Shown piece by piece: positions 6,592 to 7,723 of a stretch of 64,000 bases of DNA (its first letter is position 1; each line of letters opens with the position of its first letter). The notes under the pieces were generated by a model, which did no database searches, was not told where the DNA came from, and saw nothing but the letters and a program-made list of their open reading frames with translations. The stretch comes from a virus (lineage: Duplodnaviria > Caudoviricetes): positions 8,097 to 72,096 of the IMG/VR virus record IMGVR_UViG_3300011008_000041. The stretch is one strand, 5' to 3'. A program made the translations under genes and the position numbers.

Positions 6592-7723
6592 CTAGCCGTG
6601 CCTCGGCGACCCAAACCACGCCTGCCCATCCGCTCCGGACCGCACCACAACGCATCATTCCAAACCACGCCTGCCAAACCGAACCCTTCCGATCCCATCC
6701 GCACCGGACCTAACCTTGCCTGCCATACCACGTCCACCCTCGGCTCTACCGACCTCGCCATCCATGCCTGCCAGCCTTGCCATTCCGTACCGCGCCGAAC
6801 CTTGCGTCAACGCGCCATGCCGAGCCGCGCCTGCCATAACGTTCCCTTCCGGGCCCAACTCTGCCTTGACAAGCCATGCCAGCCAGTCCACACCTGAGCA
6901 TGCCGTTTCCCACCGGAACTGACCTCGCCTTGCCCGCCATGCCTCACAGATCCAAAGCGAACACTACCGAAGCCAACCATGCCCGCCGCGCGTAGCCACC
7001 TCGTACCGTAACTAGCCTCAGCAAACCGGGCCTGCCATGCCCAGCCATGTCCCGCCTTGACGTTCCGAACCTGAACGGACCATGACTGCCAAACCGCCCG
7101 TGCCGTACCGGGCGCAGCCTACCCGGACCATGCCAGCCGTACCGTACCAAAGCCCACCACAACAAGCCGTGCCATGTCACACCGGAACTGCCTTGCCTGG
7201 ACGTGCCTGACCTCGCGTCGACTTTCCACGCCTAGCCTAGCCTGGCAAACCGTACCGAAGCTCATCCAACCGGAACCAACCGAGCCCCGCCTAAACCCGC
7301 CTGTCATATATGTACCGAGCCCAGCCCCGCAAAGCCGTTCCACAACTGGCCCTTCCTTGCCTGCCGCACCGAGCCTTTCCAGACCGTGCCTAGCCCCAGC
7401 GAAGCATGCCCCGCCTGCCGCACCGAGCCGAACCTTGCCAAACCCCGCAAGACCCAGCCTAAACAGAGCGAACCGTGCCTTGCCTGCCTTGCCGGACCTA
7501 GCCGGGACAAACCGGGACTTGACACACCTAGCCTGCCGGGCCATTCCACGCTCTGCCACGACGCACCGCTCAGGACCACGCCATTACGTGACTTGCCTTG
7601 CCTGCCAGTCCATGCCATAACGAGACGCGCCAAGCCCCGCCATCCTTACCCTGACCGCCGTACCGAACCAATCCAGAACGGGCCCAGCCAAACCGGAACA
7701 TGACTTACCCAGCCGTGCCTGTC
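6592..7723 (-). ncRNA. GGY-NN pentamer-periodic guide array (about 20 units; VIPR-like guide RNA array)
   Basis: Plus strand reads RCC-NN repeated, e.g. gcc aa acc ga acc ct tcc ga tcc ca tcc gc acc gg acc ta acc tt gcc. 21 delimiters of type gcc-n-gcc; 15 of 20 spacings equal 4+5n nt. Confidence 0.85.

Follow-up and report, generated by a model that had tools for sequence, protein, structure and literature searches.

The window examined here comprises 64,000 nucleotides (nt) of a Caudoviricetes phage genome (IMG/VR record IMGVR_UViG_3300011008_000041, positions 8,097 to 72,096). Its minus strand carries, at 6582–7719, a tract of GGY-NN pentamers that is very probably the vrRNA array of a phage-encoded VIPR (Viral Interference Programmable Repeat) system. 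Such systems consist of the Vipr protein, an ancestral RAMP, and of vrRNAs of 9–16 GGY/NN pentamers, in which the NN dinucleotides base-pair with double-stranded DNA and each repeat passes over one base of the target (10.64898/2026.04.26.720920). This newly described system, in which RNA guides the recognition of DNA through a gapped code, has been proposed to be older than CRISPR. The locus is an unusually large example of this already described kind and not a new kind of system; through it the 1-nt-skip rule is checked computationally, and independently, in a clade of Vipr proteins remote from that tested in Escherichia coli.

Grammar of the pentamer tract

The tract lies between two minus-strand genes and is non-coding, without a credible open reading frame (ORF). 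ORFs of 105–208 amino acids overlap it on both strands, owing to its skewed composition, and none of them spans it as a whole; its interpretation as a coding region was rejected on these grounds. A dynamic-programming parse of the minus strand, running from 7719 to 6582, resolves it into 231–232 GGY-NN pentamers in approximately 21 units of 9–14 pentamers each, most of which close with a 4-nt GGCA that is followed by GGC. The units abut directly at this step (GGCA·GGC, the dot marking the boundary), with neither intervening sequence nor structured tails between them. No further GGY-NN tract was found elsewhere in the 64-kb window.

The 5-nt period is pronounced. The lag-5 autocorrelation of 6582–7719 is 0.465, compared with 0.295 ± 0.0125 in shuffled sequences (z = 13.6), and the autocorrelation peak shifts from 5n to 5n − 1 around lags of 49, 54 and 59. 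Positional entropy within the pentamer is 0.43, 1.11 and 1.51 bits for the G, G and Y positions and 1.95 and 1.94 bits for the two N positions. An earlier note, made from the letters of the window, had described this period and had expected the NN positions to be the more variable ones, and both statements agree with the values given here. It had also listed 21 plus-strand delimiters of the form gcc-n-gcc. All 21 positions carry this motif or a one-base variant of it (the six variants being GACTGCC at 7084, AACTGCC at 7186, GCCTGGC at 7240, GCCTGTC at 7299 and 7717, and GACCGCC at 7653); the spacings between them agree exactly with the list, and 15 of the 20 equal 4 + 5n. The suggestion that the tract bears information and is not a slippage microsatellite is likewise borne out, as the NN entropy is near maximal and the NN dinucleotides of five units form gapped matches to genes of other phages, as described below. 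Tandem Repeats Finder reported nothing on the tract, a result that fits units differing in content.

The spacings of 48, 63 and 53/64 nt that break the 4 + 5n rule result from extra 4-nt steps, which cluster at 6760–6776 (GGCT·GGCA·GGCAT GGAT·) and 7641–7655 (GGAT·GGCGG) and which look like small indels or the remnants of very short units. The last two units (6582–6671, with starts at 6671 and 6622) both open with GGCGT GGTTT. This shared start suggests, at the level of sequence, that one unit was derived from the other by duplication and subsequent divergence, and may hint at the way in which such arrays grow. In one related locus, a prophage in an Alistipes-labelled metagenome-assembled genome (MAG; locus L001, 6773–6831), a unit is nearly a simple repeat of alternating GGTGC and GGTGA; the unit either has decayed or serves as a guide to a target of low complexity.

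Seven types of VIPR system have been distinguished, and the `staggered arrays' among the published architectures are those whose adjacent vrRNAs share an overlap of 1 nt (10.64898/2026.04.26.720920, fig. S18). An overlap of this kind is exactly a 5n − 1 spacing. In that work, small-RNA sequencing confirmed the ribozyme-interspersed and single-vrRNA architectures and the staggered architecture was only diagrammed (10.64898/2026.04.26.720920). In the present tract RNA folding is no better than in shuffled sequences (z = +0.8), and an Rfam search returned no match at E values up to 1. Given that the units abut without a tail and that there is no excess folding, the architecture is assigned as staggered and not as type II. 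It resembles staggered VIPR in that a phage-borne Vipr RAMP gene is flanked by GGY/NN repeats with 5n − 1 spacing, in having an accessory gene alongside and in having targets in other mobile elements.

The vipr gene and related loci

The gene directly upstream of the array on the same strand, vipr (7730–8398, minus strand), encodes a 222-residue Cas7-like RAMP, the start of which was set at M15 of a 236-residue ORF from the lengths of its homologs. Judged by sequence comparison, its product is the Vipr protein, a stand-alone RAMP. A profile of 81 diverse homologs matches the chain annotated as `SUSP1 Vipr protein' (PDB code 36pp, chain D) with an E value of 1e-13, aligning residues 59–215 of the query with residues 26–189 of the 202 in the chain. 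The relationship to SUSP1 Vipr is nevertheless distant, with an E value of 2.9e-5 for the single sequence and an alignment that mainly involves the C-terminal third. An AlphaFold model of the protein (pLDDT 95.6) gave as its best Foldseek matches in the PDB the Csm3, Cas7 and gRAMP chains of type III, VII and III-E systems (E values of 2e-5 to 1e-3, TM scores of 0.35–0.5). Searches of Pfam, NCBIfam and PADLOC assigned no family to the protein.

In the SUSP1 system one Vipr protomer occupies each pentamer of a helical filament, and the GGY triplet is held by H17, R138, D177, W178 and R179 (10.64898/2026.04.26.720927). R167 of the phage protein aligns with R138, the thumb arginine of SUSP1 Vipr, and E207-W208-R209 with D177-W178-R179 of its G-loop, while the counterpart of H17 falls outside the aligned region. 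In the C-terminal G-x-G-E-W-R loop, G200, G204 and R209 are invariant among the 81 homologs and G206 is present in at least 90% of them. The locus shares with type II VIPR (Escherichia phage SUSP1 and a Pseudomonas fulva prophage; PDB code 36pp) a homologous Vipr protein in which the GGY-contacting arginine and the (D/E)-W-R motif are kept; it also shares units within the range of 9–16 pentamers, a 1-nt skip that falls on the wobble position, and guides against rival elements that include other VIPR systems. The family is large, with 4603 matching proteins in a collection clustered at 90% and 2596 representatives at the 50% level, and relatives were found in MAGs labelled as Clostridia, Oscillibacter, Lachnospiraceae and Acutalibacteraceae.

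Class 1 CRISPR-Cas systems, in which Cas7 or Csm3 assembles on crRNA, are comparable in fold (that of a RAMP, which comprises an RRM core together with a thumb and a glycine-rich loop); there too, each protomer covers a short RNA segment and the thumb interrupts the guide–target duplex at regular intervals. The two differ in their period (5 nt here, three of the bases being hidden, and 6 nt there, one base being flipped) and in that the guides of the present locus are hard-wired in the genome. No CRISPR-like direct repeats of at least 24 nt lying within 200 nt of each other are present in the window, a Pfam search found no cas families among the flanking genes, and no adaptation genes are seen beside the locus.

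The layout of the locus was compared with that of four loci obtained by exact-protein look-ups (L001–L004) and of 31 IMG/VR loci, the Vipr proteins of the latter being 34–68% identical to that of the window (47–68% for the 29 that have a downstream array). A GGY-NN array begins approximately 7–45 nt past the vipr stop codon, on the same strand, in 29 of the 31 IMG/VR relatives and in each of L001–L004. In the window this distance is a 10-nt spacer (7720–7729, minus strand) between the stop codon and the first pentamer, ending in GACA, which departs from the GGCA delimiter by one base; in L004, GGCA·GGC follows the vipr stop directly. The arrays of the relatives contain 10–154 pentamers, so that the 231 of the window constitute the largest array among the 35 related loci. 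The IMG/VR relatives contain 167 four-nt steps, with the consensus GGCA·GG(C/T) and A at 94%, and their dominant unit lengths are 44, 49, 54 and 59 nt. The NN content varies between homologous loci. No promoter-like or terminator-like sites were found on the minus strand between vipr, the array and the 149-residue gene that follows it.

These comparisons also bear on the possibility that the tract acts at the level of DNA and has no RNA function, for instance as a series of two-tier G-quadruplexes, a packaging site or an origin. The strong strand asymmetry of the tract (the plus strand is 43% C and 21% G, with a GC skew of −0.3 to −0.44) and its runs of GG every 5 nt would suit an element of this type. 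In relatives that have an array, however, the tract is always found after vipr, on the coding strand, and neither the variable, target-matching NN content nor the conserved GGCA punctuation would be expected of structural DNA. We consider such an element most improbable, and all three candidates (G-quadruplex DNA, packaging site and origin) were dropped.

Some loci depart from the common layout. L004 contains, besides its downstream array, a solo GGY-NN unit of approximately 12–15 pentamers upstream of vipr (5885–5957), with GGCA·GGC at its start, and the distant relative L035 has a tract of ten pentamers at its very start, before vipr. In the window the G+C fraction is approximately 0.52–0.64 in the vipr region and falls to approximately 0.40 just beyond it (9400–11000), and the VIPR module may be of other origin than its neighbours.

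Targets of the guides

Each unit was converted to a pattern of the form xNNxNN…, corresponding to the 1-nt-skip rule, and scanned against sequence collections. Clear targets outside this phage were obtained for five guides.

The first is a guide of 11 NN pairs (6773–6831, minus strand) that matches the antisense strand of motif A of a family-A DNA polymerase (F-I-V-A-D-F-S-A-I-E-A), which we take to correspond to motif A of E. coli Pol I (D-Y-S-Q-I-E-L-R). IMG/VR contains at least 111 sites that match it exactly (22/22), where we estimate that fewer than 0.1 would be expected by chance. All of these are antisense and share one reading frame, in which the skip falls on the wobble base; 98 different strings are formed by the skipped bases, and the GC content of the loci spans 31–61%. 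In locus L107 the target ORF (5697–7706) is assigned to Pfam family DNA_pol_A with an E value of 3e-20. The same guide bears on the 4-nt phase break, which the earlier note had taken to be a unit boundary. The complementarity ends exactly at the break although the target is conserved past the 5′ edge of the guide, and the NN dinucleotides of the preceding unit mismatch there, from which it follows that the break is a true guide boundary; the conservation of GGCA·GG(C/T) at the 167 sites in related loci points the same way.

A second guide (7135–7188, minus strand; 10 NN pairs) matches the antisense strand at the N-terminus (..N-P-T-K-V-I-T-G) of a single-stranded DNA-binding protein (SSB) of the Enc34 type. 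It scores 17–19 out of 20 in 20 of the 111 loci that had been fetched with the polymerase guide, where shuffled guides gave no such match, and in each of these 20 loci the SSB site and the polymerase site share a strand and are 1.7–2.5 kb apart. The corresponding ORF in L107 (7717–8292) matches Pfam family Enc34_ssDNA-bd with an E value of 7e-75.

A third guide (7534–7602, minus strand; 13 NN pairs) is directed at the antisense strand of motif V of an SNF2-family helicase (G-I-T-L-T-A-A-G-T-x-V-F). An 18-base sub-pattern of it has 14 exact matches in IMG/VR, ten of them in the same context of helicase motifs V–VI, and the full guide scores 22–25 out of 26 at such sites; the target ORFs carry the Pfam domains SNF2-rel_dom and Helicase_C. 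A prophage in a Lachnospiraceae MAG (L039) that has a Vipr relative also has an SNF2 helicase (2212–3564), against which this guide scores 21/26. As L039 contains both the Vipr relative and the helicase target, VIPR-bearing relatives may be among the intended rivals.

The fourth guide (7189–7247, minus strand; 10 NN pairs used, from 7242 onward) differs from the preceding ones in matching a sense strand, over codons 5–14 of a 71-residue gene of another mobile element (M-Y-Q-F/Y-Y-Y-V-N-D-D-Q-T-H-N…). Eleven exact 20/20 matches were found in metagenome contigs, ten of which lie in one small ORF, with differing wobble bases. The neighbours of this gene in L198 encode HTH_3 and Peptidase_M78 proteins (ImmR/ImmA-like), a DUF2188 protein and a sigma-70-like factor. 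The sense-strand match had been predicted from the NN composition of the guide. Taken over all units, NN composition, which is a weak test, favours an antisense–wobble reading over a sense–wobble reading by approximately 24 bits and does not separate the former from one other frame. The idea that all guides are antisense and possibly act on mRNA was dropped, as this guide matches the sense strand.

The fifth guide is the first unit of the array (7656–7719, minus strand; 12 NN pairs). It matches the antisense strand over the last codons of a rival vipr gene (V-E-K-x-G-Q-N-G-M-F-H-V), again with the skipped base at the wobble position of the codon. The score is 23/24 in L026, 20/24 in L005, L008 and L036, and 19/24 in L001; shuffled guides reach a maximum of 18–19.

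A further unit (6672–6720, minus strand; 9 NN pairs) gave three exact 18/18 matches in IMG/VR, a number near chance. In two loci (L042 and L044) the match lies on the antisense strand of K-E-L-E-Q-A-G-Y in the same 307-residue ORF, with the skip at the wobble position, and the third is out of frame; the 307-residue ORF matches no Pfam family. This weak candidate, seen in sequence matches near the chance level, is not claimed as a target. No further targets were found in five whole genomes of related phages (approximately 360 kb), and the guide that starts at 7484, scanned with up to three mismatches against five host MAGs and 401 genomes of the order of an Oscillibacter MAG, had no match.

The matches to foreign genes are difficult to reconcile with the tract serving as a platform on which an RNA-binding protein assembles as a ring or filament and recognizes the GGY triplets alone, with NN as mere spacers. 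Bacillus TRAP binds 11 sites in which GAG or UAG triplets are spaced by two bases. The tract resembles the TRAP sites of the trp leader RNA in form only, with a fixed triplet and a 2-nt spacer in a 5-nt period, approximately 10–12 repeats per unit compared with the 11 of TRAP, and an RNA without excess structure. The protein family and the function are different, however, and the spacers are informative: the NN dinucleotides of five units match foreign genes far beyond chance, which already contradicts such a platform, and the protein encoded next to the tract is a RAMP with homology to a Vipr of solved structure and is not TRAP-like. We consider such a platform scarcely credible, and a TRAP-like or CsrA-like protein sponge was dropped.

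The guide against a rival vipr also lends itself to a different reading, in which the RNA would be a decoy that soaks up the Vipr protein of a rival or redirects it to harmless sites. Satellite-borne solo vrRNAs in E. coli have been reported to hijack the Vipr protein of a rival (10.64898/2026.10.15.759431), and besides this precedent for stand-alone hijacking vrRNAs a decoy could explain why the array is approximately 1.5 to 20 times as long as those of its relatives (231 pentamers compared with 10–154). Against this, the array comes immediately after a vipr gene of its own, in an operon-like arrangement that is conserved, and the guides match essential genes of other phages and not neutral sites. 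A decoy function is very unlikely as the explanation of the array, and the roles of decoy and guide are mutually compatible.

The phage genome is complete (72 kb, with direct terminal repeats; 100% according to CheckV), and it contains no self-target at 80% or more of the NN positions. The best self match, at 19/24 (79%), is that of the first unit to the 3′ end of its own vipr gene (7736–7771); the remaining guides score as shuffled controls do. The own vipr gene differs from this unit at five positions, four of which involve TCN in place of AGY or AAN codons, a pattern that may reflect selection to escape self-silencing or a weak autoregulation. When the own genome was scanned with other spacings, skips of 0, 1 and 2 gave only background scores and a skip of 3 recovered only the array itself. 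DNA_pol_A and Helicase_C domains are absent from the complete genome; a search for an Enc34 SSB found no match there, but as the control gave none either, this result is uninformative.

Proposed mode of action and the accessory gene

By analogy with the SUSP1 system, vipr, the array and the accessory gene vap would be transcribed together from the minus strand, and Vipr protomers would polymerize along each unit, one per pentamer, burying GGY and presenting NN. The resulting filament would bind the double-stranded DNA of a competitor and block its transcription. A filament had also been supposed in the earlier note, which took the phase break for a possible processing or filament-capping site; in SUSP1, Vipr does form such a filament on the vrRNA. 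Each NN would pair with two target bases and skip one, so as to read the first two bases of consecutive codons, with the 4-nt GGCA step forming the end of one guide and the start of the next. The guides would be aimed at the most conserved motifs in the replication module of a rival (motif A of polymerase A, the N-terminus of the Enc34 SSB and motif V of the SNF2 helicase); the small gene next to a lysogeny switch and the 3′ end of a rival vipr would be further targets. Since it is the first two codon bases of conserved motifs that would be read, synonymous changes in the rival would give no escape. If the analogy holds, the locus indicates which genes are silenced in rivals, namely their replication module, a gene next to a lysogeny switch and their own vipr.

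Several observations weigh against this interpretation. Targets were found for only approximately one quarter of the guides. Exact scans of the first unit (in IMG/VR and in metagenomes), of the unit at 7415 and of the full 13-pair guides at 7602 and 7484 had no match, and the best match of the guide against a rival vipr, at 23/24, is not a perfect target. The 19/24 match to the own vipr is just below the 80% cut-off used in the published work, and being so near it makes some self-repression possible. The SUSP1 vrRNA is approximately 100 nt long and ends in an invariant 3′ tail with a filament-capping pseudoknot, in contrast to the units here, which are tail-less and run head to tail; without a capping 3′ tail, assembly and capping may differ from those of type II. 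The number of vrRNAs differs as well (four in SUSP1, approximately 21 here). That the array is transcribed, that the RNA has the same unit boundaries and that Vipr binds it are points that we infer from the SUSP1 system, and that the target is repressed and not cleaved is assumed solely from the lack of a visible nuclease.

A more speculative possibility, which we advance tentatively and regard as rather doubtful, is that in a tail-less staggered VIPR the register slip at GGCA·GGC may be the only punctuation between Vipr filaments, with or without cleavage of the RNA, and that the guides were apparently chosen against invariant catalytic motifs. If this were true, an RNA of 1.1 kb would yield approximately 21 independent guide filaments without a ribozyme, a pseudoknot cap or a dedicated processing enzyme, and a single phage would be covered broadly against whole families of rivals, in the way that its polymerase guide fits at least 111 contigs across the GC range given above. 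In any case the locus is well suited to studying how staggered arrays without tails are divided into guides.

The gene that follows the array (6094–6543, minus strand) encodes a protein of 149 residues, with a Shine–Dalgarno site approximately 40 nt after the last pentamer, and is a candidate vap (vipr-accessory) gene. A homolog comes after the array in each of the three related loci that were compared, with identities of 45% in L001 and 39% in L004, and the protein matches phrog_15946 with an E value of 3e-21. No family was assigned by Pfam, NCBIfam or PADLOC, and no sequence similarity to any solved protein was detected. A model of the protein (pLDDT 91) has a helical hairpin at its C-terminus. 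Foldseek returned no match to this model below an E value of 1; the N-terminal part weakly resembles winged-helix domains (Foldseek E value of approximately 2; VIA-align Z scores of 5.3–5.5, within a range of 5–6 that is common for unrelated helical proteins). Elsewhere in the phage, the minus strand contains a very long ORF of 2141 amino acids at 22466–28891.

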